Origin: Branchiostoma belcheri
Lineage: Eukaryota
Direction: 5' to 3'
NCBI RefSeq assembly: GCF_001625305.1
Contig: NW_017802379.1
Location: 4,393,479 to 4,457,478 of the forward strand
DNA: 64,000 bases
Shown piece after piece: positions 13,101 through 62,839 of the stretch. Under the pieces are notes generated by a model that saw only the letters and a list, made by a program, of their open reading frames with translations, was not told the origin of the DNA and did no database searches. The position numbers and the translations under genes are program-made. Position 1 is the stretch's first letter; every line of letters begins with the position of its first letter.

Positions 13101-16100
13101 ACTTGTTAGCTTCCTTGTCGTATCTCCTCTGTTGCCCAAGCTGAGAGAAATGGAGACAAAGCATGACAGACTGTGTTAAGAACCCAGTGAGGCAGCATCT
13201 TGAGTGTGTAGACAGTGGAAAGAGAAGACTATCCACTACCCAGGCAAGCAAGGAGAGAGTGTGTGAGGCATCCAGTGTGAGTTACTGCATCATATATGGG
13301 CATCCGGCAAGAGAGAGTGTTGTAATGTGAAGAACTGCACTTCCACCATTATAAGCTGTGCGCTACCGAATCTTAATGTTTAAAGGACCATCCCCAGACG
13401 CGTGCTGTGAGACAACACTTGCGTGCTTCTTAAAGGTACGTAACGAGGGAGAACGCACCTGCACGTTCTCCTCAGCGTCCATCCAGAACTCCTCGAGTTC
13501 TTTGCGGAGTTTGGCGTTATCGGTTTCCAGTTGGGTAGCCCGCTTTTGGAACTGCGTTGTGCAGGGGTTAGGGACAGACGGGCACAGAAACAAAAAACGT
13601 AAACACAAGGAAAGTCTTCGATAAAAAAATTTAAAACTATACGGTGAGACTTCCATGCATATCAAAGGCTATATTTTGGTGTTATATTTATCATAATTGG
13701 CCGTTTATTTTGTGTAAAAAAATAACAGCATGCAGTACATGTAGATTATATACTCCAAGATGCACCATGCAGTTGTTAGAACTTACTAAATAGGGTCAGT
13801 TAGATGGGTCAACTGTTAGATGGAATTAACTGAATAAAACGTGCGTTATCCAAAAAAAGTGTGGGACGACGAGTCAGACTGTGGTTAGAGGGGGCTCTGC
13901 AGCATTATTGTCCCGTGCAGCTGTCAATCAATCAAGCAAGCCTTAGCAACAGGACTGTTGTCATGGCAACCCACAACCTACTGTTAGGTCATTGGAGGAA
14001 GCAGTGATTCAAACAGAGACACTAATGTCAATAGCATCTCTTGGGGAGGGGGGACAAGGCTGACCTTATGCCCCTACAGGATTGACCTTGAGAGATGCAA
14101 ACCTTGGCTTTGTCCTCGGCCTCCTCCTTGAGGTGTTCGACCTCCTGTCGGAGTTTGGAGTTTTGTTCCCGCATGGCGGCGAGCCTGCTCTGCATCTCAT
14201 CACCACTGGCCTTCATGGCCTGAGCAGTGTGGATGGACAGGTCACACTCGTCATTGGGAGAGAACAACTACAGTACTACAGGCTAATACAGCCTGAAATG
14301 CGTGTCATTTTCCTTAGTGTCCCAAAATGTCTCCCTGTACTTTTATAACTTTTACAGAGGGACACAGGAATACAACAACAGCTAGTGCCAAGTTCCAACA
14401 TTTCAACACATACATTGTACTGACCCTACTAAATATCCTATGATTGTTTAAATTGTTAGATTGTTATGTCTTTTTATTGACTTGTACATGTAGATACCTT
14501 CTTATCCTAAAGTTGGCACTTTGGGATTTGGCACTGCTTGTTGTTATTTCCATAGACTACAAGATGTAAAGAGCATTCTTTTTCCTCTTGATTAAATCTG
14601 ATTTAATTTTATAGGTTTACCCGGAATAAAATGTTAGCAAGACAATGACTTAAACATGATCATAGCACAGATCATCACATGAGGCATTACTAGTATAACT
14701 CAATTACTACCACTTTGATTATCTTTGAATAAGAAAGAAAAAAGGTTGATCATTAATCCTGTGGATGAAACTGAATTAAAGTAAACATTAATCTCTCTAA
14801 GAAACTGTGCGTATGATTGGTGTGTGCAGAGACAGACATGGTGTTAGAACTGAAAACAAAATTAAACTGTCAACATACGCATGTGTTGTGTACATACAAG
14901 GCCACCATTCACTCAACACCAACCGACACATACACAGAAATCTTTCCTTTTACACTGCACATACACACTGGTACAGAAACAAGTGAACTTTAGACACATT
15001 AGGATGTAGATACACACCAGAATCACACATTTCACACTTCCACACAGTTTCCTTTCCACCTGCAGTACCACTACAGATTGCAAGGAGGAGCACATTCACA
15101 CACAGGTGAAGTGACACATGCACACATGTACCTGATTCTTGTCTTCAGCCTGTTGTTTCAGGTTCTTCAGTTCCTTCTTAAGGTTGGTGTTTTCTTCCTC
15201 CATCTCTTTGGCTTTTTTAAGAGCCTATTGGCAACAACATAACAACATGTCCCTCCTATTAAAAGTACTTTCCTTACTATAGATTTCAAGCTTTGTCAAA
15301 GAAAGATGGGTTGAAAAGATTCATGTACAGATTGGGGCATTAGGGCATTTGGGCATTTGCATCTTTTTAAAAACTTGTAAAAAAGACATTCCTTCAAATA
15401 AGTTTAACTGTAAATTCAATTTTAGGTCCTAACTGTTCAATCAGTTTAGCCACAAGAAGTACTGTATATAACATCATTTATCAAAGACATGAGTTATTTC
15501 AATCACAGTTTAATATGACAAGTAAATTCATTATTTGAAGTACATATATATGACACTTGAATAAATACAAAGCATTCTAGCCTAAGAGAAGAAATGTAAG
15601 GAAGCTGTTGTGAGTGACATCTTCACTCTATATTCTACATTTAGAAGAACTGTGCAGACTGTGTGCAAGATTTGAGTTTCCTGTGGTGGAAAATTACATT
15701 AGAGGAAGAAAACATGCATTTGAGTTAGTATCACTGTGACAGAAACAGTGGAAAGATTAGTGACAGTTACTTCTATCTAACTTAAGCAGCTTTCTGCATG
15801 CTGGTATACAGAGTGCAAGGACAGTTAGATGTGCTCTTGACTAGACAGTGAAGCTCCTGTACAAGTCTTGGAGAGAAATATGCTTTTTAATAGATCTTGA
15901 GAGACAGAAGCTGTCAGTGGTGAACAGAACATAGCCCCACATTCGGCCACCAGAAGTGCTACATTAAGACCATAGCCCCACATTCGGCTACACCATGCCT
16001 CCCAACCTTGTGTTTGTCCTCGGCTTCAGCCTTGAACTCAGCCAACTCGTCAAGGATGCTGTTGTTCTCCTCCTCCATCTCCTTGAACTTTTTCTGGGAG

Positions 16101-19100
16101 ACCTCGACAAGGTACTCCATTTCCTGGTTTTGTTAAGGAGGGGGTTAGGGAATGACAGTTGTAAGCAAGATTATCAACTTAATCCAACGTAAAGCTTGCA
16201 GAAGAAAAAAGTTCCCAAACTTCCCTATTGTCTAACATCAGAATCTTTTTGCAATACTATGTAGCACTCATGCTTTGACTGACAAATGTCCATTATTTTA
16301 TACACTTAATTTTGCAGACATCGGTACATGTATTAAGCGTTTACCTTAGCCTTGTCCTCTGCATCTGTTTTGTAGGCCTCCTTTTCTCTCCTGATGTTGT
16401 TGTTCTCTGTGTCAAGTTCCGTCACCTTCCTCTGGGATTCGTTTAGCTCGTTCTTGATGTGGTCTCTGTTTAAAACGGAAACAATTGGTCATTAAAAAAA
16501 CTTGGTACTGAAACTCTTGACACAAATTGTCATTTTCTTAGACCTAGAAAGGTAACATTTTGGGCATCTCCTTTTTTTCATTTTCTCATGTACATGTAAG
16601 TTGAAAATGGAAGATAAAAAACACAAATGTACTGAATTTTCTTCACTGTTTTCTATATGACCTATATCATTATGTTAAAGTCTTTTCCTGTCAAACTCAT
16701 CTCACAAGTAAAGCTGCCCTGCAGTCAAGCATCACTAGGGGGCTCTGCTTGCAAAATCAATAGGTCTAACACAAACGTCATGTTTTAACAATGCTGCTCA
16801 CAGTGCAGCCGGTTACAGTTGGCTGACTCATATGTTGACTTATACTCATGACTGCCATAACAGTGAAAGTCAACTTTGCCCTTTTACCAAATATGGTGTG
16901 GGCAAAGTCCAACTTTCCCTTATTTTTAAAAAGAAAGCAGCATTATTATCATAAAATGGTAAAAGAACATTGAGGTTAAATTTTCATGAATTTTAGGAAC
17001 AGACCAAGAGGGATAATTTGTCCTTTTCATAATTCCGTGACAGTGCAATTCATTTCTTAATCTTTCTGTGAATATTTTTTTCTTATTTTCTTGCCTAATA
17101 CTTCATGGTCCATTTAATAAGAATTTGAAGTTGACAGCCATACACGTATTTATGGCAAATGCAACTGCTACAATAATCACCTGTACCCATTTAACATACT
17201 TGATTAAATATTAAACATACATATTATTTCAAAGTTTAAAAAAACATATAGGCTTTTTAAGCCGCATATAAGACGTGTCTATTACACATTCCATTCTTTA
17301 GTGTTATTCTGTCTCTACAACCTACATGTACCTTGCAGTTTGCAACAAGAGTGATGTATTTTTACTAAACTATTATCTAGACATACTGGTACTGCTACAA
17401 TGACGGTGCATACTGGCAACATTTTGGTCCATTCCAACCATGGTGTATTAGCTACAAAGAACTTTATCAAATTATTAGCTAGTTGAACAAGAGCGCACAG
17501 TCATTGAATGACCTCTCTGTTTCAATTATATATCTTAGTCGAGGTAGCACCTTCTTGCATTGGTTGTGTCTGTCATACTGGCCAGACATTTTGTTTACTG
17601 ACTAACGCAGCTGTAGTTCAGTGAACTACATTTTTATGCACAAGCAGTTTCTAATTGTAGCAAGTGTGAAGCTGCTATGATGTAGTGCTTTAAGTCTATG
17701 GCACTGTGAAATGGCAGCTCTAATTCCTAAGTATAAAGACGATCTATTACCGCTGTTCTTAATTACTTTTCTACACAAATGTGATGTTCATTTTTTCTTG
17801 TCTTTCTTGTCCTTTCCCTTGAAGAAGTTCAGCTTTAGTGATTTTGAAGGTGACTTTGAGGGAGACCTTAAACCCAAAGAACACACACAATGAAACAAAC
17901 TGACAGACTTGAAAAATATTGAGCAGCGTACTTCTTGACAATGTTCGGATTCAGAACTGAATGTCACAGACTCACGTACTACTCGGTTTAATGTCAATTT
18001 TTCCCCATCATATAAGGGGTAGTAGCAGCGTATTGTATATCTAGTCCATACAAAACAATTAATAGGAACTCACATTTGTTTCTGCATCTCTGCAACACTC
18101 TGAGCTCCCAGGTCAGACTCCTGTCTGCTCTTCTCCAGTTCCTGTTGAAACTTGACCAGTTCATCTTTGGTGGCTTGGAGCTGGGGACACAAGCACAGTA
18201 CATCATGTACAAGGCAAGCAATGACTGATAATCATTAGTCAGTATACAATGGACCAATTAAGACAACTGATTGAAAAATGTGAAACAAATAAGCCAGGAA
18301 GAATTGTGCAAGATGGAAATGGCCTAGCAAGACCCAAAATACCCCATGTAACATGGTTAGAACATTTGATAGGTCAGATGTCAAATAACATTTAAACTAC
18401 ATGTATCACCACATTTAGCCTTCCAGTCACCAACAAGCTCTGAACAGAACATGAGTTCTTCAAGACATTACCTCCTCTTCTAAGGCTTTAACCTTGGACA
18501 AGGCTTCATCAGTGGCTTTCCTGGCAGACTCCTTCTCTGCTGTGACTGCATCTTTCTCCTGAATTACTTGGACAAGCTTACCCGACGACTCAGTGGCAGA
18601 GTTTAGAACCTGATTGTTGTTTCCAGAGTTTTGCGTTTCCCGCCAGACGGATATTTCAAGGGAAAGGTATGGTGGGGTGAAGTGGACGAAAACAAACAAA
18701 AATAAACAAAAAGTCAATAAAACAACATTTAAGGAAACAAAAAATGCTTTAAGTTAGATTGTTACAAGATTCATGTTATTGATTAATAAGATCTGATGTA
18801 AAATAAAATGCACACACATTATCAATAAAATGTCAAATGAAATAAAACAACATAGAAATGAAAAAAAAAATTATGTTACAAATTGGACATTTGTCCATGA
18901 TACATATGTATTAGTAGGTCTGTGTGTTAGTTTGATAAGTATAGACCTAACTAGTACACAGGTTAAATTAAACAGGGATGAAAGGAACTTAAGAAATGGA
19001 GAATTCTGGACAGCCATTAAGTTTCCACATTTAATTGGGACTGTAAAAACATCTGACTTATTCAGTTAACTGTGAAAAAAATGCTAACTTCTAGTCTTCT

Positions 19101-22100
19101 AACCTTCTCCCTGCCAATTCACTGACTGATGTTGTACAAATCAGACAGGAGAATGTTAGTAACAACGTACATCTTGTTTTTCTTGGACTGCCTTCTCCTT
19201 CTCTGCCGTGAGTTCTTGTTGCTTGGTGACGGCTGCTTCTTTCTCAGAGATGGCAGTCTCCTTCTCCAGACTCAGCTTCTGTTTCTCTGCCTCAAGCTCC
19301 GCCTTCTCGGCCAGAGCTGTTTCTCGTTCCTTAAGAACGGCCTCGTATTGGGCCCAGGCCTTCTCCTTGGATTCCTATGGAATAACACAAAGTAGTACTC
19401 ATTAAGAACAAGAAATCAGAGACTAGCAGGAACTATGCAATCCTTGGCTTCCAGAATTAACTTATGTCAACCTCTAATTCCCACTGGCTCCAGTCATTCT
19501 GTCTGTCAATCTTCTCCCACCCACTTGCTGTCAACTTACTCTGTTCAGACAGTTAGAGATAACACAAACAGTTTCAATGAGATCTCTTCTTTAGCACGTG
19601 CATGGGTCTATTTAGATTATGTAGATGTTCTACACTTGCCTTAACACACCATACATTCAAAGCATGCCAATTGAGTTACGATTACCAATTTGAAGGTTGA
19701 GCTTAAAGTAAAGCAGAAGTACAAAATCCAGAGGTCACACAAAAATGATTTTGGCATATCCCACCTTAGCTAGTATACATACTGTGTTCTTCAGCAATAA
19801 GGAATCTTGTCTCAATTTTAACATGTATAAATATCAGCTTGAGGCTTACAGGAATTACAGAAGGAGTACATTTCAAAGAAAGGGCATGCTTCAATACACA
19901 GCCAGCTGTAATTGTCATACAATACTAGTTCATTGACATGATGCAAATAGCTGTTAGTACAATGCAACAGACATATCTAATCTAGTCGGGTTGCAGGGAA
20001 GCTTACAATGGATTTCTTACAGGTAGTTGAGACCAAATACATTTTAAAGCTGTTTGCAATTTTTTTATCACCATGTTTTCAGTTTGCTGTTATTTTAAAT
20101 TTTTCTTAACATTTTTTTTAATCTTTATTTTTCTTAAGGCTTTTTGTCCATATTTTGGCTGTTTTGTTTTATTTACGATTTTTATTGTGGCTTTTCATTG
20201 TAAATTTTTATTGCTTAAGACTTTTTGTAAACAATTCTATTTTTAAACTAGATTTTGTTTTTAGGCTGTCTTTTTTGTGGACATAAAGGAATATATAGAC
20301 CTTTGAGGTCGATTTTTGCTTGCTTGGTTTATGTTATAGTTGTTTTTCTCTGATATTTATCTTTTTTTATTTTCTGTTTTGTTTGATTTACATTTTTATT
20401 GTGACTGGTCTTCCTCTCTGTAGAAATCCAAACAACAAACACATGCTTAGTAAACAACATTATTATGTTCCAATTTCATACATCATACCATCCATATTAT
20501 ATCTTTCCAACTACATTCGTCAAGTCTCTAACCCTTTAGCTTTCTTAATAATATAACCATCTCACATACCAACTTATTTTTTTGTATACCAGGTCTAGTA
20601 CAACTTTGTGTGTACTTCCACCTTAGATTGTCAATCATGTTCCTTTAACCTTTTCTCAACATCACCTATCTTTCATCTTTCCATGTTCTTTCTCTTTCCA
20701 CTGTACTTTCTCATTCTCAACCCAACAATACTAATCATCTACAGACTGTCCCTTTGTCCATCTTCAACTTCATCCTTCAACCTTATGAATCTTCTTTTTT
20801 TTATTCCTCAAATTTGATGAGTTTCGTAAGTGATTCCCTTTTGGTCTTACCTCTGGAACAAATGCATGCAATGAACAAACAAAACATAGCAGATTATTTG
20901 AAGACATGCGTATCAAGCTCAGAAACACTCAGAACTCTCGAAATTAAACCACTCTTCAAGACTTTGAATTAGCCATTATCCATTGACTTTTCTTAGTTCT
21001 TTTTATTCCTTCTTTAAATATTTTTTTTCCTGATAAGGTTTAGCCACAACATTGGCATTATCCCAGGTGTCTTTTCTCTTATCATCATCATCTTAATTTG
21101 GACATCATTTCATGTAACTTCATTTTTACCTTGTTTGTTTCTTTGTTTGTTTGTTTGTTTGTTTGTTTGAGCTTTCATTATTTTCAACATTTGTTTAGGT
21201 CTTTTTCAAGAATAGTTCTATCTTCTTTTGATGCCACACATGTTGGAGTTTCATTTTTAAACCTGCATTCTGACCACACTGTGCTTTTCCATTTCTTTGT
21301 CTCTCCATAGCATGTTTCTTTTTCCTTGAAGTACGTTTCATAGTTTTCTGAAGTTACAAGTTGAAGTTCCAGGTTAGGGAGAGTGGTTAAACTGGGTATG
21401 TTACCCTTCACCCTGCCAATACCCTTTCTTTAGGACATAAATAAATCAATCTTTCGGTAGGCTTATGGTAACCAGACCCAGTCTGTGTAGGGGAGGCTTT
21501 TCTTCCTCTCTCAGTATGTGGAGGAGGAATCAATATGTTCTCTCTCCATGTTCAAAAGTTGGTTATAAAAGAAAAATAAAACCAACATAGAATAGAAAAT
21601 TTTCACCTTTAACAGGTGGACATACACTGTCCTTAAGTGTTGATTGGATGTTGGTACTTTCCACTTTGAAAAAGTGCTTACAGCAGCACAGGGTGCATGC
21701 AGAATACTTTAACCTTCCTCCTGCTGTGGATGGATCCATGCAACAAATTTGCATTGTTTAAAGGAGGAAATCAGCAGGCAAAGGCCTAACAGCCATCCAG
21801 GTGTCAATGGGGCAGATACAGTTACGTGCAGTGCCATGACAATTGTTTGTTCAGAACATGGCAAATGTCAAAAGCCAGGGCCAGTTCCTGTCAGTCTGCC
21901 TGCATGCACATCCTGTAAGCCTCAACACTCGGGCAAAAACGCCCGTCATCTCACTCTTGGACAGAAACAGGGATTGGTAGGGGCATCTTTGGAGACGTCC
22001 TCCCTCTTGCTCCCAGTTTTAAGACCACGATCGGTGTGGCCTTTCAAAATAAAGTCACAGGACATGACTTCAACAAAGGTTCTTCGAACCCAAAATCAAA

Positions 22101-25100
22101 TAGACTTCAAATCACACACAAACAGAGTGGTGGAACTTTGGGTTCATCAAAAGTTGTTTCAAACCAGTAAAGTCTGGCATTAGAATATGTTCAAACCAGG
22201 CTGAATAATTTCTTGTAATTCCGCCTAGGTTTGGGACTTGTTACAGGACCTGAGGAGAGGCTGGAATTGGAGGGGGAGTTGGGTAAACCGGCATTCCGAA
22301 TGGAGTGGAGCCATTTGAACTGTTTGTATTCCGTAGGAGATTCTGGTGGAGAGTTGGGAAGAGGAGGTAGGGGGGATTTCGGGGGTGGCGGAAATTTTCG
22401 CTTCTGGCCGGGGCTTCCTGGAGGTGATTGTATCACCGGAGACAAGACCTTTTTCGGCGGCCTCGGAGACCGCGGTCTACCATACGGGTATTTCAGGCAG
22501 AACGGCGGAGATGGCGGGGGAGAGAACTCCGAAATGGACGGGAGGAAATCCAAGTCTTTTGCGACAGGAATTGTCGACAGAATGTCGTCAGCCTTTTGTG
22601 AAAAGAGGTCTGGGAACGGCTCTTCAATTTTGCACTCCTTTTGCTTTTCAGGTGCTGATTTTGGCAGTTTGGAGCCTGCTGTCTCCATTTTAAAGTCAAT
22701 TTTTGGTTCTTTTGTTTCAGCCTTTATCCTGCTCCGAGGGGAGCGAGGGAGGCTGTTGGACTTTTGAGCCGGTGGGAGGACGTATGAGTAGTAGTGTTGG
22801 GGACGGTAGTACGGATCTGGAGTTTTGGTTCGGCGGAGGAGCGGACTTTTGCGCGACTGAGATTCTTGGAGGCTGCCGGGACACTTGGCTATCAACCACT
22901 GGGAAGAGAAGGTGGAGAGAGAAAGAGATGGAAGCACAGTGTTACTTAATGGACTTTTCTTTAGTGGAAACCAAGACACTCAGAAAGGAAAGAACAGAGA
23001 TGTACATATGGAAATGGCAGAAACGGGATGGAAAGTATAGGGAGAAGTTGTCTGACAGAAAGTCATGTTGACCTCAACACCTACCCAACTTTTTTCTTCA
23101 ATCTAGACGTTTTGCTGTTTTTATGCATTGCCTAAACAATGATGTTTATCGTTTTATACTTAAGGTTTGGCAGCAGCTTAGAAATGGTCCTAGTAACTTA
23201 AAGCTTGATTAATGAAGACAGCCTGTCTTCTTGTTAATTGTTTTAGTCAATATGTTTACACTTACCTGAGCTTTGTTTAATTTTATCAAAGCCTGTTACC
23301 ATCTGATTCAGTCCTTCTCAATCAAGCCATACTTCTTTGAACCATTATCTGGTAAAAGTGTAAATGGCCACATAAGCCAGTATATGTGAGGCTGCTTATC
23401 AATCAAGAACCACCAAGCCAATGAAGTTGTTTATGTCATAGATTTTGTGCTTATTGCATAAACTGAGCTCTTGCTTTAAAAAGTTAACAAAAGCTGTAGG
23501 ATGTCAAACATGGGGTTTCTATGTGGGACATGACTAAGGAAGAAAACATCAGTGTAGGTTCTACCAGGAGACCAACCTTCAGCGTGTCCCTCTCGTGCTG
23601 CACCTCCTCGATGGTGTGCTGCGTCTTCTCCTGGTGGTTGTTCAGTTCCTTCAGCTTCTTCTCCGCCTCCGCCAGCTTCCCGTTCAGGTCCGTCATCTCC
23701 GAGGTGCGCTTGCTGGTCAGCTCGTCGATCTCCTTCTGGTGGCTCTCCGTCAGCTTGCCGATCTTGGCGACGTGCTTCTGGACTTCGCTCTCCTGCGGAG
23801 GGAATGGCGGCGTGTCGTTGTTGCTACATGCTACTACATGACACCCCTGACTAGTAGGGACTTGTTGTTTTCTTTTTAGTGCTGTGTGTAGGAATTATCC
23901 ATCAATAGTAACTATCATGTATGTTACAGTTATTAGTCAGTAGTTATTGGGAAGAATCAAAGGGTGGGGACTAAGGTATTGATTCAGTATGGGAAGACAG
24001 ATTAGCATTGTGAAGGTAAAGATTTAGCCAAATTTAGAGGGAGGTCATGGGATAATCTTTTCCTTTTTCACTCCCAAAAATGGCATTATGATCTGTTTCT
24101 CAATCAAGTAAAAATTCTTTCCTTTAGTTTTGAACCTCACACAACTTAGTAGCTAGCTTAGAAGAAAATTACTGATGCTTGTCTTTGATATTTCATAATT
24201 CAAGAGAAATGACCTAATGATTCTTACCTTCAGGCAGATCAGCATTTTCTTCAATAAAAGCAAAACTTTTTTTTCTAATTCTTTACTAAAATGTAGTATT
24301 TTAGTTGCTAAACACACACTAACACTATCAATGTTGAAAAGTAAGCCTCTTTTATTGCAGTATTCACACTTTTCAGATAGATTGTCATACAGTTCATATT
24401 GCCTCTAACAATGTCATCCTCTGTTGGCACATAGTTCTTGCTACCTCTTACAATTTTTGACCATTTAATTCTATTTCTGAAAGTAACGAAGTTAATCAAG
24501 TCATTCATTTCTCCACACTTCTTCCTCGGTAAGACCTTTTCCTCAATCTTAAGCATCAGTGTATTCTTTCTACAGAAATGGACTTTATTTTGTTTCAAAT
24601 TGGAAAACCTCAGTCTGTTTTTGACATACCAAAGCTCGTAAGGCAACTAAGGTAGATGGCATCCCTCCTAAACCTTTCTCTTCAAAATATGACTACATCA
24701 TAAGTTACTGACAACCATTTTTTCATTATTTAAATTCTTAGATGGTTGCTTGCTTTGCTCTTGCATAGTAGTTCCTTGTTACGGAAACATTTAATACGAG
24801 CATGTAGTATAAATAGACTATTGCACGATTAGGACTATATCACGCAATACATGTACTGCTACTAGGTACATGTATGTATGAACATGTTGGAAAGACATCT
24901 GCCTCACAGTGCCAATTACTTCATCCACATACCCCATCACTCCTCCGATAATAGACTGATCCTGATTGTCCATCACAATTAGCGGATCGACCAATGACAA
25001 AGTAGCAATTATCGGTTTGACCAATGAGAGAGTGGCTACATTTCCATCAGATACTTGCATATGTATGTTTTGACGGAGGTGGGCAGACCTTTAGGATCAG

Positions 25101-44000: not shown

Positions 44001-46619
44001 CTAAAGAAAGAAGACTCTTTCATCCGGATGATTCACACTTGAGCTGACTCATTAATGTCAATGGCATCGCCCTTCCCACTGTTAGATACACCACATGTTG
44101 GGCTGGGCAGATGACACATGGGGACAGGATGGCTCCACCAAGGTCATACAAGGTCATTATCAAACATACCACAAGGTCAAAGGTCACAGTTGGGCTGACT
44201 CTAATATCTACTGATTATGTACATCATGCACAAATATTCAAAATGCTTTTACACTTCAACTTAACACTCAATACTTTTTACACCTGTTTTCATAAATCAA
44301 TCCCCAAAAAACAAATTGTATCTTACGATTCACTTGCAAAACTGGCATGGCATTGGCACTGACACTGGCATTTATTACTGTACCATGTTTAACATGCACG
44401 CCTATAAAATACCTCACTCCAACTAGGCCAAAGGTTGAAGCGAGAAAAGTACTTGACATGTACGTGACCATGATTCTCCACCAGTCCTGTTTTTTGTTGA
44501 CCTCTTTCATACACCTGAATCTCTATAGCCTATACCTCTTGACCAACGCAGGCAGGACTATGGGATTGGTCTGCAGCTGGAAATTGTTTTTGATGCGATC
44601 TGTTCAGCTCATGAGATCTATGCAAATTCAATTACTGCAGGAACAATCATATTTAGATGCTGACTATTGGGCTGGTGTATAAAGAGCATGTATTCTAAAA
44701 GAGATTACCATTTGTTAAGGTGACAAAAAATCCTGTAACTGGCATGGAAGTTTTTTAAAGAATAGAATTTTAAAGCATGTCCTAGTGTTATTTTTTCTTT
44801 CCATTGTCACAAATTCCTTCCTTACCAGTCCCTTTTAGAACTTTTGATCCTGATCTATTATTGATTATTAAGGGACAAAAGCTTCCTGTGATTTGGGCTC
44901 CTGGTAATACAGGTAATCTAAGGTCAGTAAGTCCACAGTTCAAAAGACAAGCAAACAAACCTGAACAATACCTTCAGCCTCAGGTTTGAAAGAAGTACAT
45001 ATAACTTGTAAGCCTTGAATTGCCTAGGATAGCTTTGAAGTTTGACAGATAAAGATAACATTTAACAAGTTCAGACAGTTGTCATAGACTCACTGCTTCT
45101 GCTTTTAGTAGTGTTAGTAACAACTTACCGTACCATATCAATAGCTGGAGTCAGGATTGAAGAGGCTACTGTAAATTGTGAAATTGTTGCTGTGATTTAA
45201 TTTTTGTGGTTTTCACAGTGACCTCTCCAATGCAAAGCCAAGACCCTGTGACTTTGTCATCTTTGGGTACCATCAAAATTTTGGGTACCATCAAAATATG
45301 TATACCAAGAGTCAAAAGATACAGGTTATCCCATTGTTAAACAATTAGCACCACCATACTTGCGGTTCAAAGGTTCAGAAGAGATGCCGTCATTATGCAA
45401 TCCCCTCTATCACAAGATCAGTCACAAGTCAATACTGCTATCTGTGTCCTTTCAAAGCAGCCATGCTAAGCCTACGGTAACTGCATACTAATGGTGACAA
45501 TTTCATGTCTTCTTGAGAAGGCGACCAAGCAGTAGCAATTACCACGGACATTTGTCTCCGGACTGTATGTGTAACATCGCCAATAGGGATCAATACTTAA
45601 CAGATGTCACCCTTGAAAGAACAATAAAGCACCTAATATGATCATGTCATACACAATTATTCTTAATTTTCAAACTTAATGACCCTTCTGCTCATTACAC
45701 CCCCTTGCCACTAGAGGATGCAACTGCTTTGTGACCAAATTTTGTCAGATAGCTTCAGGAATTTCAAAGGAGTTTTTTTGTGTGTTTTGTTGTACAGTAT
45801 TTTAAATCATATTTCTATGTATTGTGTATCATTTTCCAATCACAAAATCAGGGGTCACACAAACCCAATTTTTATTGCTCCATGGTTAATCAGTCATCAA
45901 TCATTGCCTAGTTTTAAATACCATCAATGAATAACATTGAATTTTCTGCAACACAATATTAAACAGACACTGTACAGTCCACGTAGTTTCAAATTCAAGC
46001 CTACAACTTTGTTCTAAAGAATTATTCAGAGCTAGTAATATCCCTCAATCATTTGTAGAAGCATTATGCAGGCCAGGGGGTCTCAATGTGGAAACTGTGT
46101 AATCTTATTAACATCAGGAGTGTAGATAAACCAATCAACTATAAAGCACACGAGATTTCTCCAGTGTCACTGACGAAAGGTAGTGGATGCTACCTAAAAT
46201 GTCACACACGATGACATGACACTCACACACACATTGTCACACATTTCAAAACATCAATAATAACATCAAAACATCAATTCATGACATCATATTCTAGATC
46301 CCGTGGGATATCATCATAAAATTCAAAATGGTTTTCATATATGTTGCCTTCTTGTACACAAATTATGTCAGGAATGGTGGAAGAGAGTAAACAAAGCAGC
46401 TCCCCGGCTTCTAAACATAGACGTGACAAACAAACGTCATCAAGTCTGGCCCCAGGTCAGACGTCAAGATGTTGTTTTGGAAAGGAACACCAACTGTATA
46501 GTTTTTTACGGGAACACTACAGGCTTTAAATAAGGCAGTTTAACTACAGTAGTGTTCTATACAGATGGTCAGGTATTAAGGCAAACTAACGATTTGGGTG
46601 CAGCGCTTCCTTTGGGAAT

Positions 46620-47400
46620 ATTACATTTACGACACGTGAATATTGAAAGTTTTTGGCAACCTTGATAGACCAGAACGACTCGGCCTACGCCCCCCTCCCC
46701 CTTCACGTACCCGGACATCCCTGCTTCCACACATCAATCTGGTACGATAACCGCCTGTCAGGGACGGTCTGGGGTTACCATCCGTAACAATGAACCTTCT
46801 GTACAATAAAACAATCCACTCACGTCTTCGTGAAGCTTTGGAAACTTTCCAGGCGGCTGGTAAATTCTTGTGATCGCTGAAATCCGGGGATAGGTGCAGA
46901 CGGACAGATTCTTCGAGCACCGACTTTCGAAGGTAAATCCAGCGTTAGAAAGCCCTCGACAACAACAGCTGCTAGAATGGGCTATCTACGACGTATAAAT
47001 GAGCTACAAGGCTTTCAATCCTACGGCTCCTTCGTCCAAATCGTCTTTACATTAAGCAAAATATGACTAAAACTCTAAATCAGGTGATTACACCACCCTC
47101 TAGTGGCCATTTTCTGGGTCAGCCTTATTACACACTTGGCGCTCTCCGTCGGATTACTGCGCGACCGTACACCTGAGTGTTAATACGCGGATTGACGTTA
47201 ATGAGTACGTCTTTTGTGGGCCTTTTCTCAGTCGATGGCCGTACTCCACGCATATCTATGGGATATTTGCTCATAAAAAGCAATATTTTCCTTGTCAAAC
47301 TCGATACGTCGAGTTTTACGAGAAGCAACAGTGGTTGGAAATTACAAGTGTTGATGCACAGCGCCCTCTAGTATGGCAGAACATACTGCAGTCCATAAAA
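46620..47400. promoter_or_regulatory. CpG island; candidate promoter and non-coding first exon of the CLIP-like gene
   Basis: This is a dense CpG block in otherwise CpG-poor DNA. A minus-strand consensus donor (ACG|GTGAGTGG; exon 3' end at 46824) points toward the CLIP-like ATG exon 5.7 kb downstream. There is no coding signal. No other gene start lies nearby. Confidence 0.4.
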
Positions 47401-49351
47401 TTCGTCTGCAAAGCCATTCCAGGCTGGAAGGCAATCATATTGAGATTTCTTTGTTGATCTACATGCTTACTTCCATACACGAAAATACATCAAATAAATG
47501 ACATGACAACACAGTTGGTTCTCAATACACCATAGTATATTTTTTTCGGCTGCACCATTTTGTATCAGACACATCTACCAGTATCAATCATCTTTTCGTT
47601 CAGATCATTCAGATGTAGCGTTACATTGGATGCCATGAACATATTCATGCCATATTGTGTTTTATTCCATTTCCTTCATCACTGGCCTATTTTCGGCATT
47701 TCAGTACCAAAACCTCTTGATGGAAGTACAATCCCTTGTTCCAGTTTCCTAACTAATAATGTAACTAATGCCACCGTATGAAGTATTGCAACCGAGCAGT
47801 CCAAAGCATCAAGCAAAGTATGCCACAATCATATTTGTATGGCTCATATCAAGACTTATAAATAAGACAAAATGTTCCTCCATCATCTTCAGACAATTCA
47901 ATAAAAAATAACAACTGGCATTGTCTGTCATTTTCTTCTTAACCAAAAATGGATTGACGATTTCCTTTTTCCAAGAACGTCATTACCTGTGCCTTTTAGC
48001 AGCCTTTTACAATATGTCTAGCTGTTTTAGTTCTGCTTACAGTTTTGTCCAAATTACAATCTTGTGTTGTCTTACAGCTTTTGACATACAGCATATAACA
48101 GATCTTACCATGTTGCCTAGCATACACTCATTTCAAGGCTGCACAATGCTTGCATTACTGGCTCACCTTCACAATACTTGGTCACACACATGGACATACA
48201 CTTGCAGATTTGACATGGCTGTACAATGATATCATGGTACACGAATGTAGAACATGTTCCGCTTGCTGTATCTCTGGTATGGCTTGGCACACTGATTTCC
48301 ATACAAAACCCCTATGGACTAGTCAACACCACTGACTTAAGACTGACTTAAGACTGATACTTGATATCCCAAACCTCAACAATGGTCATACACTGTGACT
48401 TAAATAAGCAACCTAAACCGTATGGAGGCACTTCCTAGAACCAAGTGATGTCTTGGTACACTACCAGTAATAATATAGTTACTTAGTAACTGTTGACAGT
48501 ACAGCAGAATGAACTAATACATTGGCTGATAAAAATTGGAAAGATTTTTTTACGTGGATTTTGATTGACGGTCAATCTTAATTCCAAAAGTATATACATG
48601 AATAACCTGTGACAAAAAAATTGTTAGATAGGATATGAAGAAGGCCAGTGGGTTGAAGAGTCCAATTTGAAAGGTTTCAGTAGAATTTCCTAGTTTAAGT
48701 CCGCAAAGAGGACTCCTGGTAGTGAACTGTCAATACCATGATAACAGTAACTGAGTCAGTTACTGTTATCGTCGTAGTGAGAATGATATGTCTGGGAAAT
48801 TTGGAAGCAGTGATTTTTATCTACACGAACCTATCTACATCAAGATAAGCAACCAACAGAACAATCAGATAACTCTTGTCACTTCAAATTTATTCCGTAA
48901 TTCTTTTTTTTTCTCTTCAATTTCCTACAACTCCACACCACACTATGTAATAGCTCCATCATTCTCACTTTTGACTTTTATAGTACAGTACTATTTGAAG
49001 AGCTTTCCATATTAAAGGAGGCTTCTGTTTGCCATTGCACTTGCTTCAAGTAAATTCATTTTCACTTCAGACTCTTTTCTTTCCAAATTTGAAGTGAACA
49101 CATAAATTGTTTCAACTGACTTGCATGAACGGCTTTGGAGCTTGCTTTGCTTTGCAATCAATCAATAAATCATTTGCAGGTTTCAAGTTTAACTTTTCTT
49201 GTGCCTACCGACCAAGCATGGTAAGTCATACATGTACAGAACACACAGCTTCCTGCTGTATTTGCGTTTTACTTTTTTTACTTCTCATTTGTTGCGATGA
49301 CTAACATTTGCGGCATGACTGGTCACGTCAACACTGGCACCATGCAACACG

Positions 49352-55400: not shown

Positions 55401-56686
55401 CATGTCTAGCAATAAAATGTAATGTGTTTTACCTTTTGGGTACATTCAGTAACAAGCAGAAATAAAATCATCTTTCAGCACTGTTGCATCAATCATACTA
55501 GTCAAACTGCACTCACTACTTCCCTATCAACAACCTAATATTGCATCACAATGACACAACATTCCACTAACCCACCTCGTCACATCTCCCGGGATTGTAA
55601 TCACTAGTATTGCATCTGGACCGTGGGCGCTTGTCAAAGGACCTGTCAAATGGCTTAGTCTTCTGTGTCTGAGGCCGCCTCCCCTGGCCCAGACCGCCGG
55701 GTCGCGGTCGGCTGCCATAGTTTGGTTCTCTCTTCCTGTCGTATTTGGGGCCTGTATTTCCTCGGCCTTTGCCATTCTCTGAAATAGTAAGTACAATGTA
55801 TTTGTATGTGTACATTTTGTACTTATGTTCACTGTAGCCACAAAAAAAGAAGAGATAGTCACTGAGTAAAATTTTTAGTCAGTACAGTATGATTTAACCA
55901 TGTTGGATTACAGTGTATGTCTTCTTATGTCTGTTAAAAATTCAACATGCTTCTGCTGTGACACACTTAATTACCCAACAACAATTCCTGCTGGATATTC
56001 AAATTATAATTACATTGTATTGTGACATCTAAGAAAAACCCCTATTCATTGTGTTTATCACAGGACCTATAGAAAACCAGTTACAGTCTTCTTTGTTGTT
56101 ACCGGTATACCCAGGTAGCACAGATTCAAAGTCCAAGGGGGTGTGTCCCTTACACCTGCTTCAGGTTTTGGGTCGGTCAGGGAAATTTGGATCTTTGAAA
56201 ATGACAACACGTTTGGTTCACACATCATGCACAGCATGTTATTATTTAGGCCGTAGGGTTGCGTTCACACGTAACAATCACTGCAACGACACACTTGAAG
56301 TCACGAAAACATCCGGGTTGGTATGCTGACTGTACAGTTTTCCAATCAACAGGTGCAGACCAGTACAGTATATGCGAGTTACACAAACACAATCCAGAGA
56401 AATTGTTTCAATCCAAGCAAAATATGTATCCTTTAATCGACAGTTTCATAATGACCCACTTCTTTAGAAGTATTTGAAAAAGAAATGAGAAGACAGAGTT
56501 GTTGTTTTTTTTTTCGTGACGACCATGACATGGCCTAAATATTTTTGTGTCGCCGTGTTGCGAACCAGCCGAAAACATACCTTGTTTTCCACTCTTATTC
56601 CCATCCTGCGATTGCCCCTTGGTGGGCCCTGCAGACGGAGAACGACCAGAAGACTTTCTTTCCATTTGTTCCGGAGTATCTACCAT
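49352..56686 (-). CDS. RNF10: RNF10 orthologue (RING finger protein 10), gene-level CDS span, 18 exons
   Basis: Colinear similarity to RNF10 along the whole protein. The RING reads [43 protein letters not shown]. Other matches are [61 protein letters not shown] and the C-terminal [13 protein letters not shown]-stop. All 17 introns have GT-AG boundaries and consistent phases. Confidence 0.9.
49690..49797 (+). repeat. SINE-like dispersed repeat copy (in RNF10 last intron)
   Basis: Contains GTCATTCTGCCTGTCAATCTTCCCC...CCACCCAAATCAATACTTCCATACC. Confidence 0.5.
49830..49970 (-). CDS. RNF10: RNF10 exon 17
   Basis: Encodes (V)[46 protein letters not shown](+1). Compare human [29 protein letters not shown]. 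Acceptor is tctacag|TT, donor CAG|GTAAAA. Confidence 0.85.
50206..50272 (-). CDS. RNF10: RNF10 exon 16
   Basis: Encodes [22 protein letters not shown](+1). Compare human MLRVGKAKADVWPKTAPKKDEN. Acceptor is ttacag|ATG, donor AAG|GTAAGT. Confidence 0.85.
50387..50508 (-). CDS. RNF10: RNF10 exon 15
   Basis: Encodes (G)[40 protein letters not shown]. Compare human SPFPSFAQ. Acceptor is ctgtag|GT, donor CAG|GTAAAG. Confidence 0.8.
50630..50783 (+). repeat. SINE-like dispersed repeat copy (in RNF10 intron 14)
   Basis: Contains TGTCATTCTGCCTGACAATCTTCC...CCCAAAAACAATACTTCCATACC. Confidence 0.5.
50844..50990 (-). CDS. RNF10: RNF10 exon 14
   Basis: Encodes (Y)[48 protein letters not shown](+1). Acceptor is acgtag|AC, donor CAG|GTCAGT. 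Confidence 0.75.
51128..51232 (-). CDS. RNF10: RNF10 exon 13
   Basis: Encodes (D)[34 protein letters not shown](+1). Compare human DDIEKRKRQRQKKAREERRRERR. Acceptor is ccccag|AT, donor AAT|GTATGT. Confidence 0.8.
51527..51644 (-). CDS. RNF10: RNF10 exon 12
   Basis: Encodes [39 protein letters not shown](+1). Compare human [28 protein letters not shown]. Acceptor is tttgcag|GAT, donor ATG|GTGAGA. Confidence 0.85.
51761..51838 (-). CDS. RNF10: RNF10 exon 11
   Basis: Encodes [26 protein letters not shown]. Compare human REYGSLERSPEKISATVVEI. Acceptor is gttgcag|GAG, donor GAA|GTGAGT. Confidence 0.85.
52070..52125 (-). CDS. RNF10: RNF10 exon 10
   Basis: Encodes (A)[18 protein letters not shown]. 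Compare human AEDGQHMFLHPVNVRCLV. Acceptor is ctgcag|CT, donor AAG|GTAAGA. Confidence 0.85.
52342..52684 (-). CDS. RNF10: RNF10 exon 9 (acidic, contains a 17-aa tandem duplication)
   Basis: Encodes [55 protein letters not shown]...[14 protein letters not shown](+1). Acceptor is cctcag|CCT, donor AAG|GTATGA. Compare human SPCYYFYQ. Confidence 0.8.
53148..53333 (-). CDS. RNF10: RNF10 exon 8
   Basis: Encodes [62 protein letters not shown]. Compare human PESCFIEAAIQELKTREE. Acceptor is gtttag|TGC, donor AAG|GTGAAA. Confidence 0.8.
53441..53556 (-). CDS. RNF10: RNF10 exon 7
   Basis: Encodes (D)[38 protein letters not shown]. Acceptor is tttcag|AT, donor GAT|GTAAGT. Confidence 0.85.
53742..53890 (-). 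CDS. RNF10: RNF10 exon 6
   Basis: Encodes (S)[49 protein letters not shown](+1). Acceptor is ttccag|T, donor ATG|GTGAAT. Confidence 0.85.
54247..54431 (-). CDS. RNF10: RNF10 exon 5 (RING finger)
   Basis: Encodes [61 protein letters not shown](+2). Acceptor is ttgcag|CGC, donor AG|GTCTCT. Confidence 0.9.
54598..54688 (-). CDS. RNF10: RNF10 exon 4
   Basis: Encodes (N)[30 protein letters not shown]. Matches human [31 protein letters not shown]. Acceptor is tcttag|C, donor GTG|GTGAGA. Confidence 0.85.
54969..55183 (-). CDS. RNF10: RNF10 exon 3
   Basis: Encodes [71 protein letters not shown](+2). Acceptor is ccacag|GTA, donor AA|GTAAGG. Confidence 0.85.
55576..55778 (-). CDS. RNF10: RNF10 exon 2
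   Basis: Encodes (E)[67 protein letters not shown]. Matches the RNF10 RYNRKRE...RRDE region. Acceptor is tttcag|AG, donor GAG|GTGGGT. Confidence 0.85.
56581..56686 (-). CDS. RNF10: RNF10 exon 1 (ATG 56684-56686)
   Basis: Encodes [35 protein letters not shown](+1). ATG context is tccATGG. Donor is AAG|GTATGT. A CpG promoter lies upstream. Confidence 0.8.
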
Positions 56687-56699
56687 GGACAATGAACGA

Positions 56700-57600
56700 C
56701 TTGGGCAAAAACGCCGCTCCAAATGTTGGAGAGACTCGACCAGCACTCGACTTCATCTTTTTACAGCTTCATCTTGACTCAACCTAGATACCCAAAAGAA
56801 AACAACTTCTCTCCAATGCAGAAGAGCAGTTGAATAATAAATTCAACGGGGTAGGAAGGAAAAGAATGCGAAGAAGTAACTGGGGGTGAATTGTCCCCCA
56901 ATTACACGCTTATTACCCCAAAATTTGGGGCAAAACACGGAGGAAAATTACAACTCTCCCTCCAAGATGGCGCTTCCCTGCCGGTATGTAAGTATCCCGG
57001 ATGTCTCGCGAGGTCTCGTCACAAAGACGTCTGCAGTTCTCGCGAGATAAAATACTGCGCCCTGATTGGCTGTCAACTGAGCGCAGAATTTCAAAGTTTG
57101 TTGATGCTGCTCCTGTGAAAACCACAAGGTCATTTCCTGCAGATTTCGCCGAATTTGTGGGTAAATGTTACATTCTATTCTAGTATCAAAGAGATCATGA
57201 GCATCAGAAAGTCCTAGAGTCGCTATTGATAGCGTCTTGATACTCAGATTGTATTTCAGAAGCTTCCAAATAGCTTGATAATTTTGATGCTCCTGTCTTG
57301 ACGTCTCTTTACTATGGCCTTTGGCTTTAGGCCTTTGGGGCTGCCCCGTGTGGAACAAATTATAGTACTTTTTCGTCCATTGCCTCACAAGTTAGTAGAC
57401 CGACAGATTTTAAGTAGAAAGATAGATATACGCTTTCTTGTAAAGAGTAGCCTTGCATCTTGTATGATAGGATTTATGCAGGCTGAAAATATGGTAATAC
57501 TAATGCTGTGGTATTTAAATTTTGGACACATGCATCACATATTAATATAATGCTTTGTTGCTAACTGTAAAGCATAATGTCCCATATCAATTCCTGCTCA
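56700..57600. promoter_or_regulatory. Bidirectional CpG-rich promoter region shared by RNF10 (minus) and the 57610 gene (plus)
   Basis: A head-to-head gene pair has its start codons 924 bp apart. Local CpG density is high relative to the flanks. Confidence 0.55.
57038..57047. promoter_or_regulatory. TCTCGCGAGA core promoter motif (perfect palindromic copy) in the RNF10 / plus-gene bidirectional promoter
   Basis: Exact TCTCGCGAGA at 57038-57047, with a second 9/10 copy TCTCGCGAGG at 57004-57013. An inverted CCAAT box (gattggctg) sits at 57064-57072. The region lies between the RNF10 ATG (56686, minus strand) and the plus-gene ATG (57610), and is CpG-rich. Confidence 0.6.
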
Positions 57601-57609
57601 GGTTAGATT

Positions 57610-57729
57610 ATGGAGCTGCTGAGTGAGTTTGACCCAGCCCTGCCTATGGGTGCTAACTACTGCAGTAACCAGCTGACAGCTGAGGAGTATGAACAGCAGG
57701 GGTCCGACGCCACCAGACAGGCACTTCTG
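57610..57729 (+). CDS. plus-gene exon 1
   Basis: Encodes MELLSEFDPALPMGANYCSNQLTAEEYEQQGSDATRQALL. Donor is CTG|GTAAAA. Confidence 0.7.
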
Positions 57730-59914
57730 GTAAAAACTCTTCATATTTTTCTTATCATGATTTAATCCTGGTTAGTTTTACCACACAGTGTGATTTTTTT
57801 CTCACCCAGTATAATTTTGCAGGTCTCAGAGGATTAAAACATGTCATTCTTCACTGCCTATCTTTAAGTTTTGATATGTGTTCGATCAAGATTGAATTTA
57901 AGCTACATGTACTTGACGGGTATGAGTATGACCTCCTTGGTTCAGTATGCCCATGTCAATTTTTCTGTCATATTCATTAGTGCCCTCTATGGTCCATTGC
58001 AGGAACTACAGGAGGCGATGAAGCAAAATCCTGAGCTGTACAGACAGGTTCTGGGGAAGAAGAGAATAGACGAGGGAAATGTCTTCTCAAAACTCAAGGT
58101 TGTTAAGCTTTGTGTTTTTACTATCATCCCTATAATACAAGTGTATTTATCTTTTGCAGTTCTGAAAATAACATTATCCTCCATTATGTAATTCATAAAT
58201 ACATGTAGTATGCCACAGTTAAAAGTGACCGTATTGGGAAGCATTTTATACTTATACTGATAATAAAGAGTTTTGTGTTTTTCCATACATAAACCAGGGG
58301 AAGCTGATGACTGCTGTGAAGGGTGATGAGTATGGGAAGGAGAAAGTGACAGAGTTGGAAACTCAAGTGAAGATGGCCGAGCTGCATGAAGAGATGTTTA
58401 AAGTGTTTGACTATGCACAAGGTATGTTCAACACCGATCCTAGTCTCTACCAGACTCGAATGAGTTATCTGGAAAATGCAGAGAAATTGGCCAAATAGAC
58501 TGAATAATATGCCCAAAGAATCCATGGGTTGCAATGTTACATATACATGTACCTTGTGAAGAAGAGCTGATTGAAATTTTGAAAATAGTAAAAGATCACT
58601 TGTGTTCTTCTTCAGAGGAAAAGACCATGACTAGAAAGTCTCAGAGATTGGCAGAAAAAAGAGCGAAGAAAGTCAAAGAGCAGCCAGCTGCCACCCCCGA
58701 GAAATCTTCCTCTGGTGAGGGGGATACCTACACTACACCCCCTCAGTTTGTCCCACCACCCCCTCCCCCGTACCCCCCTCCAGTAGTGGGTACGCCCATG
58801 GCACTCAGGGAGAGAACCAACATGCAGTCTACTCCTGCACCTGCTGCCAAGAAGAGGGTTGCTGACAAGAATGGGTATGTAACATTCTATGATACATGTA
58901 CATGTAGCTCATTAACAGGCAGCCATATCAATGTGCTAAAGTTTAATTAGGGCAAATGCAAACTTTTAGATTTAGGTATGAAAAAGCTATATATTTGCTT
59001 CTTAACAATTCACTGAGCAAAGTAGATCTCAATATACTTATTTGTCAGTCTTCAGCTTAACCCATTGTTGCTATATTGTGCAGGCCCATGCATGGCTCCA
59101 GCACATCTATCAACAGTGTCCACTCTGAGCTCCTGGCCTCCAACCAGATGCTTCGCCTCAGGCCAACAAGGGTTAAACGGTGTGTAGTAACATTTCTCAG
59201 TTGACACAACAAAGTTGGTACCTGGGATATTAACAATTGACCATTTTAACACTGCCACAGATGCAATATGTCTTTCAGATACGTTTTGTCTTTTAGTCTA
59301 AGCACATTTACGCATGCAGGATCCTTTTTCTCTCTTTTTCTAACAGCATGAATCAGAAAGTTGTTCGCAGAAACTTACTCGTTGGTAAGCAGACAAAATC
59401 AAATATGGCTGGCAGGAAGATAAGGTGTTTGCTGGGTCGAAATTCTGAACATTCAAGAAATTGGCAGTGGTATTGACACTCATTTTAGTCATGACTTAGT
59501 TTGCTTGTTTCGGTATAGACCAAATCGTGACTCACTGTCATAATTAGCGGTTCTACCAATGAGAAAGTGGCTGAAATGTTTGCATTTATCTTTTTATCTT
59601 GGATTTCTTCATCTTGAAGTACATTGGTGGGGCCATGGCATCAGACTATTGTGTCTCAGGTTTCAATGCCAATCCTGCTGCACTTCTTCCACAGATCTCC
59701 AGGAGGCACCCCGTTCTACCGCTCCAGACACGCCCGCCCTAAGCTGAAGGCTGTGGAGATGTCGTATGACAGCGTCAGCAGCTTCAACCTCAGCAGTCCA
59801 TTCAGCCTCTTCAACTGCTCCCTGCTGCAGAAGTTCCGCAACGCCCGCAGCCCAGCCAGTCCCGCAGACAACCCGCCAGACTCCCCACACAGCCCAAATA
59901 CCTTCTCTCCCTGA
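57610..59914 (+). CDS. Unassigned 7-exon protein-coding gene (about 283 aa). It has a weak PDCD5/TFAR19-like motif (LIEILK) and a Pro-rich, Ser/Pro C-terminal tail. Gene-level span.
   Basis: ATG at 57610, with exons 57610-57729, 58003-58098, 58298-58421, 58562-58874, 59084-59179, 59347-59384 and 59703-59914. All junctions are GT-AG with consistent phases. It shares a CpG promoter with RNF10. The product starts MELLSEFDPALPMGANYCSNQLTAEEYEQQ and ends NARSPASPADNPPDSPHSPNTFSP. Confidence 0.65.
58003..58098 (+). CDS. plus-gene exon 2
   Basis: Encodes ELQEAMKQNPELYRQVLGKKRIDEGNVFSKLK. Acceptor is ttgcag|GAA, donor AAG|GTTGTT. Confidence 0.65.
58298..58421 (+). CDS. plus-gene exon 3
   Basis: Encodes GKLMTAVKGDEYGKEKVTELETQVKMAELHEEMFKVFDYAQ(+1). 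Acceptor is aaccag|GGG, donor AAG|GTATGT. Read-through of this donor reaches an in-frame stop at 58496-58498, giving a possible short isoform. Confidence 0.65.
58562..58874 (+). CDS. plus-gene exon 4
   Basis: Encodes (E)ELIEILKIVKDHLCSSSEEKTMTRKSQRLAEKRAKKVKEQPAATPEKSSSGEGDTYTTPPQFVPPPPPPYPPPVVGTPMALRERTNMQSTPAPAAKKRVADKN(+2). Acceptor is tgtgaag|AA, donor GG|GTATGT. An alternative internal donor lies at 58714 (CTG|GTGAGG). Confidence 0.55.
59084..59179 (+). CDS. plus-gene exon 5
   Basis: Encodes (G)PMHGSSTSINSVHSELLASNQMLRLRPTRVK(+2). Acceptor is ttgtgcag|G, donor ACG|GTGTGT. Confidence 0.55.
59347..59384 (+). CDS. plus-gene exon 6
   Basis: Encodes (R)MNQKVVRRNLLV(+1). Acceptor is tctaacag|C, donor TTG|GTAAGC. 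Confidence 0.5.
59703..59914 (+). CDS. plus-gene exon 7 (terminal, stop 59912-59914)
   Basis: Encodes (G)GTPFYRSRHARPKLKAVEMSYDSVSSFNLSSPFSLFNCSLLQKFRNARSPASPADNPPDSPHSPNTFSP-stop. Acceptor is atctccag|GA. Sequence is GC-rich. Confidence 0.6.
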
Positions 59915-62450: not shown

Positions 62451-62839
62451 CTGAAAGTACAGAACAGGTGAATGGAATAAGTGAGTTCACGGTTCCAACT
62501 GTGCATGCGCAAGGTCAAACGTAAAGGTCCTGACTTGTAACAGTTCTTGCTAATACAGTTCTCGCAAGCTCATGCATTGATCACTGTCCACACGTACGGT
62601 CAACACATTCGCGAATAACAGTTCTTAACCTTCTCCCGGCTGAAGTAGGGTTTAGGCATCAAATTTGTATTATAGGATTAGAGCAGGGGGGAAAAGGTTA
62701 AAAATCAATAAGGCAACATTGTCACTCTGACAGAAGAACCACATTTTAAGGCCTTCCTGGTGACTATTTCCTGCCCTATCAAAGCTTGTAGAACCTGCAG
62801 TGTTCTAAGAGGAAAAGTTATCACAGTGTACATGCGTAC

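Follow-up and report, generated by a model that had tools for sequence, protein, structure and literature searches.

A candidate alternative last exon encoding a Ser/Pro-rich tail in an intron of a CLIP-170-type gene of Branchiostoma belcheri

CLIP-115 (CLIP2) is a vertebrate CLIP paralogue that lacks the C-terminal zinc knuckles and the ETF motif. In the domain scheme of the CLIP proteins, these two elements form the C-terminal module of CLIP-170 (PMC4395129). SxIP-type proteins that track the plus ends of microtubules (+TIPs), as exemplified by APC, CLASP and the spectraplakins, bind EB1 through basic Ser/Pro-rich regions (PMC2171753). Here, we describe a segment that may provide a CLIP-170-type gene with a basic Ser/Pro-rich C-terminus. 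It lies on the minus strand of a 64,000-nucleotide stretch of Branchiostoma belcheri DNA (contig NW_017802379.1, positions 4,393,479 to 4,457,478), which we call the window and number from its first letter (coordinates in Table 1). We read positions 22898-22191, together with about 1.2 kb of 3' untranslated region (UTR), as an alternative 3' terminal exon belonging to the CLIP-170-type host gene, a prediction from sequence to which we give slightly less than even confidence. Such an exon in a CLIP intron is plausible, though unproven, and a fairly ordinary kind of feature. Every sequence-intrinsic test that we ran (acceptor, phase, open frame, GC and CpG content, lack of a strong donor, and AATAAA) is compatible with an in-frame terminal exon.

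The uninterrupted minus-strand frame runs from a TGG at 22898 to a TGA at 22193-22191, and comprises 235 codons. Measured from stop to stop, the open reading frame (ORF) extends over 262 codons (22979-22191), making it the longest in all six frames of the window. There are no internal stops in this frame over the span of the ORF, versus five to eight in each of the five others. An open run of at least 238 codons in any of three frames arose in 15 of 20,000 mononucleotide shuffles of the segment, and the given frame was fully open in 37 of 30,000 first-order Markov simulations trained on it; the latter test is conservative, since the training sequence itself contains no in-frame stops. The ORF exceeds what composition alone gives, with a chance probability of about 1e-3 by shuffles and Markov simulations. 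The segment contains no tandem repeat and is not repeated within the window, and an Rfam search of the whole window returned no match. An earlier, sequence-only reading of this DNA had described a frame of about 238 codons that starts at 22905 and ends with the TGA at 22191. The long open frame, its stop and the quoted peptide all hold, but the proposed start falls within the pyrimidine tract, 7 nucleotides too far upstream; the exon begins with base 22898 and encodes 235 residues.

The acceptor proposed in that reading also stands up to inspection. Directly before TGGTTGATAGCCAAG lies a pyrimidine tract in which 33 of 37 bases are C or T, followed by CAG, with the AG at 22900-22899. When we scored all 4347 minus-strand AGs in the window using a simple measure (pyrimidine tract plus the -3 and +1 positions), the acceptor at 22898 ranked first. 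A possible branch point (gTAAc, with the A near 22942) is suggested by consensus only. The ORF opens in phase 0 after the AG, giving an in-frame junction with the host coiled-coil exon that ends at 23577. The donor of this exon (CTGAAG/gttggt) is weak, with a score of 1.4, and is likewise in phase 0. The next host acceptor, at 19374, is in phase 0 as well, and hence both junctions from 23577 are in frame. If the intron were instead retained, translation from the upstream exon would halt after 30 codons, so the ORF can be reached solely by splicing.

The ORF has no strong internal donor, which fits a terminal exon. Its single positive-scoring GT donor is TCTCCG/gtgata at 22436, with a score of 1.0 and in phase 0. 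Paired with the acceptor at 22898, this donor would define an internal cassette exon, inserting a Ser/Pro-rich linker of 154 residues into the coiled coil, and its score does fall within the range of accepted host donors (0.5-7.5). We nonetheless consider such a cassette extremely unlikely: the donor is off consensus at -2, +5 and +6, the open frame and the exon-like composition go on for another 81 codons to the TGA, and a disordered insert of this length would break the rod.

Returning to the terminal exon that we favour, the first canonical AATAAA past the stop lies 1.18 kb downstream, which is 1.6 kb ahead of the next host exon. GC content stays at around 0.45 for about 600 nucleotides past the stop, then drops to the intron level. 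Looking in silico for marks of an alternative last exon, we found an in-frame 3' splice site, its own stop codon, and an AATAAA before the next exon. The candidate 3' UTR also contains a (TTGT)n/(AAAC)n microsatellite (21131-21169), which matches positions 341-394; nothing else in 20900-23570 matches another part of the window.

CpG content separates the ORF from its surroundings. The observed/expected (o/e) CpG ratio is 0.34 for the whole window and 0.24 for introns, but 0.83 for the ORF, and GC content is 0.52 in the ORF versus 0.37 in introns. The intron adjoining the CpG-rich block has an o/e of 0.1-0.2; upstream of the acceptor there is one CpG in 202 nucleotides, and the whole 678-nucleotide upstream intron contains three. 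The block begins 21 nucleotides into the predicted exon and finishes close to the stop. CpGs are just as sharply confined in the neighbouring real exon (23577-23792), and the proximal coding exons of the host (the CAP-Gly exon and those at 35824, 31323 and 23792) have o/e values of 0.79-0.95. This confinement is the strongest intrinsic argument for an exon; it fits better with the host exons than with a promoter island.

The sequence-only reading had recognised a CpG-rich ORF within an AT-rich intron, and rightly so, although the island it drew (22200-22980) is too wide, with CpGs running only from 22222 to 22877. It had further suggested that an intronic CpG island might drive an independent nested gene. 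The formal definition of a CpG island (at least 200 nucleotides with a GC content over 0.5 and an o/e over 0.6) does apply here, as windows across 22101-22900 have a GC content of 0.50-0.53 and an o/e of 0.80-0.88, and the segment stays above the thresholds for more than 500 nucleotides. Transcription on the host strand from the CpG-rich 5' part (about 22700-22880) would bring the single in-frame ATG (22688), which has a good Kozak context, into use, yielding a Ser/Pro-rich protein of 165 residues that ends in FSLV and has its own stop and a downstream AATAAA. A promoter island, however, would normally spread around the start independently of exon boundaries and reach upstream of the acceptor, whereas these CpGs are confined to the ORF and ordinary host exons bear the same signature. 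A nested gene would also leave the strongest acceptor in the window unexplained, as well as the 96 open codons upstream of the ATG, for which we estimate a chance of about 0.07 from the stop density of the other frames, and its product has no homologue in the collections searched. These points weaken the proposal, and we regard a nested gene as improbable.

The tail that the alternative last exon would encode is Pro-rich and basic (235 residues; 20% Pro, 14% Ser, 11% Lys; predicted isoelectric point 10.0). Run without an alignment, AlphaFold2 gives it a mean predicted local distance difference test score of 55, with one helix at residues 188-202 and the rest predicted to be disordered. There are 14 S/T-P dipeptides, compared with 7.9 expected from composition (P=0.009). 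Both the predicted disorder and these sites agree with the disordered tail rich in proline-directed kinase sites that had been described from the sequence. Three matches to the SxIP-like pattern [ST]x[IL]P are present, SKLP and SPLP in basic surroundings and STIP in acidic ones, although this count is not significantly above the shuffle mean of 0.96 (P=0.07). The tail also holds one FPPPP, one PPLP and a C-terminal -S-L-V.

We searched for relatives of the tail in several ways. A word-index homology search of 5.8 billion clusters gave no matches, and neither did an exhaustive phmmer search of 1.84 billion representatives, in which isoforms of one gene collapse to one representative. Scans of metagenome contigs with the ORF and with the upstream exon found nothing. 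In Pfam, the ORF has no match, and three antisense or neighbouring ORFs gave nothing relevant. We also retrieved 240 CLIP relatives, many of them isoforms, using the 1080-residue conceptual isoform as the query, and searched these locally; none was similar to the tail (best phmmer E-value 0.14 in this tiny database). The word-index search returns only proteins of similar length (189-388 residues for a 224-residue query, and 926-1688 residues for the 1080-residue query), and short exon queries therefore miss long isoforms that contain them, a caveat to the short-query negatives. The source clade is missing from the searched collections, as is any close relative of the source. Taken together, the null result shows that the tail is no widespread domain in these collections, while conservation among close relatives is a separate matter. 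The exon is probably young or lineage-specific. A retrogene or transposable element as the origin of the ORF was rejected, as it has no homologue in the collections searched and no adjoining poly(A) remnant, and its boundary coincides with a splice acceptor.

Several observations weigh against a terminal exon. First, no homologue of the tail was found in any collection searched, and these searches gave no evidence of selection on the protein. The only other CLIP locus examined, that of Solemya velum, has no comparable ORF at a similar position; its long intronic ORFs are tandem-repeat or TE-like (transposable element). Second, the coding signal differs from that of the host. GC content is flat across codon positions (0.51/0.51/0.54, versus 0.60/0.30/0.63 in host exons), although periodicity is weak evidence here, as Ser/Pro-rich disordered regions are often non-periodic. 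Lysine is encoded by AAA and AAG in a ratio of 17/9, versus 71/126 in the host (P=0.005), and leucine CTG is rarer than in the host (P=0.014). We dropped synonymous-codon log-odds as a coding test; they set the region apart from introns yet make no distinction between frames 0 and 1, and so measure GC content only. Third, pyrimidines are abundant throughout the block on the minus strand, which generally lowers the number of stops and inflates acceptor scores. Four other AGs among the top 20 fall within the ORF, and the acceptor score thus partly reflects regional pyrimidine richness. Fourth, 20 of the 36 CpGs are at codon positions 2-3 (CCG, TCG), where their decay would be partly synonymous, so that keeping them points to hypomethylation or youth no less than to coding constraint. 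Finally, the distance of 1.2 kb from the stop to the polyadenylation signal also counts against the exon.

Much of this would equally be seen in a non-coding, pyrimidine-rich intronic island that has retained its CpGs, for example an unmethylated regulatory element or a young insertion. Composition would then have given rise to the ORF and the acceptor-like tract incidentally, and no stable protein would result. Such an island would account for the absence of a homologue among about 15 billion proteins, the missing codon periodicity and the un-host-like codon choices, the high-scoring pseudo-acceptors inside the ORF, the CpGs kept at partly synonymous positions, and a peptide that is disordered and of low complexity. 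It would also account for the antisense frames over the ORF, which are unusually open themselves (178, 122 and 115 residues). It sits less easily with a frame that stays open in only about 1e-3 of composition-matched shuffles and Markov simulations while each of the other five frames carries its five to eight stops. Nor does it predict that the CpG block halts at the predicted acceptor with no spread into the flanks, that the window's best acceptor coincides exactly with the block's start, or that the frame agrees with the upstream exon. On balance, we think a non-coding island unlikely but a real possibility.

The host itself is a CLIP-like gene, as the sequence-only reading had supposed. Its minus-strand exons at 39846-39156 and 38625-38513 specify a pair of CAP-Gly domains (with GKNDG motifs) and a Ser-rich linker, and the matches found with the host carry PF01302 with E-values down to 3e-74. 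The intron that splits the second CAP-Gly domain at GKR/YF is conserved, being common to vertebrate and mollusc CLIP1. A long central coiled coil is encoded by more than 40 exons of heptad-like sequence rich in E, K, Q and L. An ab initio model made by exon chaining has 18 exons and 845 residues; it starts with an ATG at 41037, and its last exon ends at 23577. The conceptual isoform of 1080 residues aligned over 75-80% of its length to CLIP1 proteins with PF27241 from molluscs, a nemertean and vertebrates, at 36-48% identity. The CAP-Gly exon is only 45-54% identical to all relatives found, whereas vertebrate CLIP1 proteins are 57-86% identical among themselves over the same region, and the source lineage therefore has no close relative in the searched collections.

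Past the exon at 19374-19171, the gene continues with more than 30 small coiled-coil exons. They include an array of 117-nucleotide exons in phase 0-0 (10853-2905, minus strand, and on past position 1, where it runs off the window), with at least 20 exons that each encode a 39-residue module (...LQKKI..E.EK..L...K/E, followed by the gt). This array suggests large-scale tandem exon duplication and a full-length rod far longer than in the relatives found (1200-1700 residues). A second set of small, similar exons (16425-13459, minus strand) ends in AEDKxKV or a close variant directly before the gt; these could be duplicated or mutually exclusive exons.

The distal exons also raise the question of whether the CAP-Gly gene simply ends at the candidate exon, with the CpG-poor repeat exons past 19374 forming a separate transcription unit. 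The CpG ratio does break sharply between the proximal exons and the ORF (0.8-0.95) and the distal 117-nucleotide repeat exons (0-0.4), and the polyadenylation signal at 21007 lies between them. So does a short ATG-initiated open frame (20850-20910, minus strand) with a strong phase-0 donor (CAGAG/GTAAGA at 20850), located between that signal and the exon at 19374. A distal-rod transcript lacking the head might use this CpG-free, AT-rich frame as an alternative first exon, or the frame could have arisen by chance. Against a separate unit, the exon at 19374 lacks its own start codon and matches the exon at 23577 in phase. Furthermore, past the part that aligns with the 845-residue model, all 120 of 120 long CLIP relatives continue with another 400-800 residues of coiled coil, in most cases with zinc knuckles as well. 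A constitutive last exon at this position therefore seems very unlikely to us.

As an alternative last exon, the segment would present the gene with a choice, which we infer, as regards splice-site use, polyadenylation and all protein properties, from the observed sequence features. Two acceptors would compete for the weak donor at 23577: the very strong one at 22898, which is 678 nucleotides downstream, and the ordinary one at 19374, from which the transcript would continue into the long distal coiled coil. Use of the former, followed by cleavage and polyadenylation after the AATAAA at 21007, would end the mRNA within the intron. The predicted product, of about 1080 residues, would keep the head with two CAP-Gly domains and their Ser-rich flanks along with about 450 residues of proximal coiled coil, and would end in the basic, disordered Ser/Pro-rich tail. 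It would lack the array of 39-residue coiled-coil repeats and any C-terminal module beyond it. By analogy with CLIP-115, dimerisation and microtubule-end binding would be retained, while C-terminal autoinhibition and the dynactin/LIS1 interface would be lost. With its 14 S/T-P sites, the tail may be a substrate of proline-directed kinases.

If the exon is used, the gene would thus yield a CLIP isoform still able to dimerise and to bind microtubule ends, but without the distal rod and the regulatory end and with an orphan tail that kinases could target. This would be a compact natural experiment on the role of the CLIP C-terminus, and a case of an ancient cytoskeletal gene that has gained a lineage-specific coding exon. 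One can go further and imagine that a recently born exon, either de novo or fast-evolving, turns a CLIP linker into a shorter +TIP that is unable to autoinhibit, and that a phospho-regulated tail with SxIP, FPPPP and PDZ-ligand motifs serves as a hub connecting microtubule ends with EB proteins, Ena/VASP-type actin regulators or PDZ scaffolds. We find this extended scenario rather improbable; if true, it would mean that an otherwise ancient gene had gained a function through an orphan alternative last exon. If the exon is not used, the segment is simply an intronic island that has kept its CpGs and contains, by chance, an ORF of unusual length. The finding is modest either way, as both alternative last exons and disordered orphan tails occur commonly, and it touches no long-standing open question.

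Table 1. Coordinates of the candidate exon, its signals and neighbouring host features in the window
Feature	Position	Strand	Remarks
Upstream host coiled-coil exon	23577..23792	-	Phase-0 end; donor AAG/GTTGGT
Polypyrimidine tract	22901..22940	-	33/37 C or T; upstream of acceptor
AG of predicted 3' splice site (cccAG/TGG)	22899..22900	-	Top acceptor score in window
Predicted coding part of alternative last exon	22194..22898	-	235 residues; from ORF, simulations and composition
CpG-rich block	22222..22877	.	36 CpGs; o/e 0.83, versus 0.12-0.13 in adjoining intron; co-extensive with ORF
Sole in-frame ATG	22686..22688	-	Codon 71; context AAAATGG (A at -3, G at +4)
In-ORF GT donor	22435..22436	-	Score 1.0; use would give a 462-nucleotide in-frame cassette exon
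TGA stop codon	22191..22193	-	From sequence
Candidate 3' UTR	21008..22190	-	Inferred; GC 0.45 to about 21600; low CpG
AATAAA	21002..21007	-	First after stop, upstream of next host exon; function predicted only
Next host coiled-coil exon	19171..19374	-	Phase-0 acceptor; partner in skipping isoform
AEDKxKV-type exons	16333-16425, 15959-16120, 15096-15203, 14028-14267, 13363-13665	-	Mutual similarity

Elsewhere in the window, three more 2-kb bins have a raised CpG o/e (0.62-0.79), namely 46001-48000, 56001-58000 and 62001-64000. The CLIP start codon (41037) lies 5-7 kb downstream of the first of these, which may contain the promoter or a 5' exon of the gene. Two plus-strand ORFs (58534-58950 and 59624-59914) have a poly-Pro stretch (PPPPPPYPPP) and a weak match to the Pfam family Mito_fiss_reg (E=0.037), which falls short of the curated threshold; these ORFs could be exons belonging to an MTFR-like gene that lies upstream of the CLIP gene.

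How does the predicted isoform compare with known systems? The literature that we searched on truncated CLIP isoforms gave the general domain scheme only, and described no CLIP isoform with such a tail. Among mollusc CLIP1-like proteins, eleven isoforms end not in an ETF tail but in CaaX-like sequences (CVIS, CRVS, CTVS and CVVS), which suggests, from sequence, that lophotrochozoans have prenylated CLIP isoforms. As would hold for our candidate, it is through isoforms that these lophotrochozoan CLIP genes diversify their C-termini. However, the mollusc tails follow a full coiled coil, keep a Pfam match to CLIP1_ZNF and are acidic as well as CaaX-like, whereas the candidate tail is basic and Pro-rich, and the sequences are unrelated.

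In composition, the candidate tail more closely recalls the SxIP-type +TIP tails, being basic, Ser/Pro-rich and predicted to be disordered, with its three [ST]x[IL]P matches. It differs from them in that the enrichment of the motif is not significant and STIP lies in an acidic context, and EB1 binding is a prediction only. In architecture, the comparison is with CLIP-115. This is a separate gene rather than an isoform, and its C-terminus has no basic Ser/Pro-rich tail and no sequence similarity to the ORF. Nevertheless, like the predicted isoform, CLIP-115 combines a head of two CAP-Gly domains with a coiled coil, and would by this analogy share with it the lack of the module that serves autoinhibition and the binding of LIS1 and p150glued in CLIP-170.

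In gene structure, the candidate resembles skipped terminal exons with intronic polyadenylation. It stands apart from them in that its use is a prediction, and in having its polyadenylation signal 1.2 kb from the stop. As in that class, however, a 3' splice site, a stop codon and a polyadenylation signal all lie within one intron, where the exon would compete with the constitutive acceptor downstream, and a weak upstream donor faces a strong alternative acceptor.

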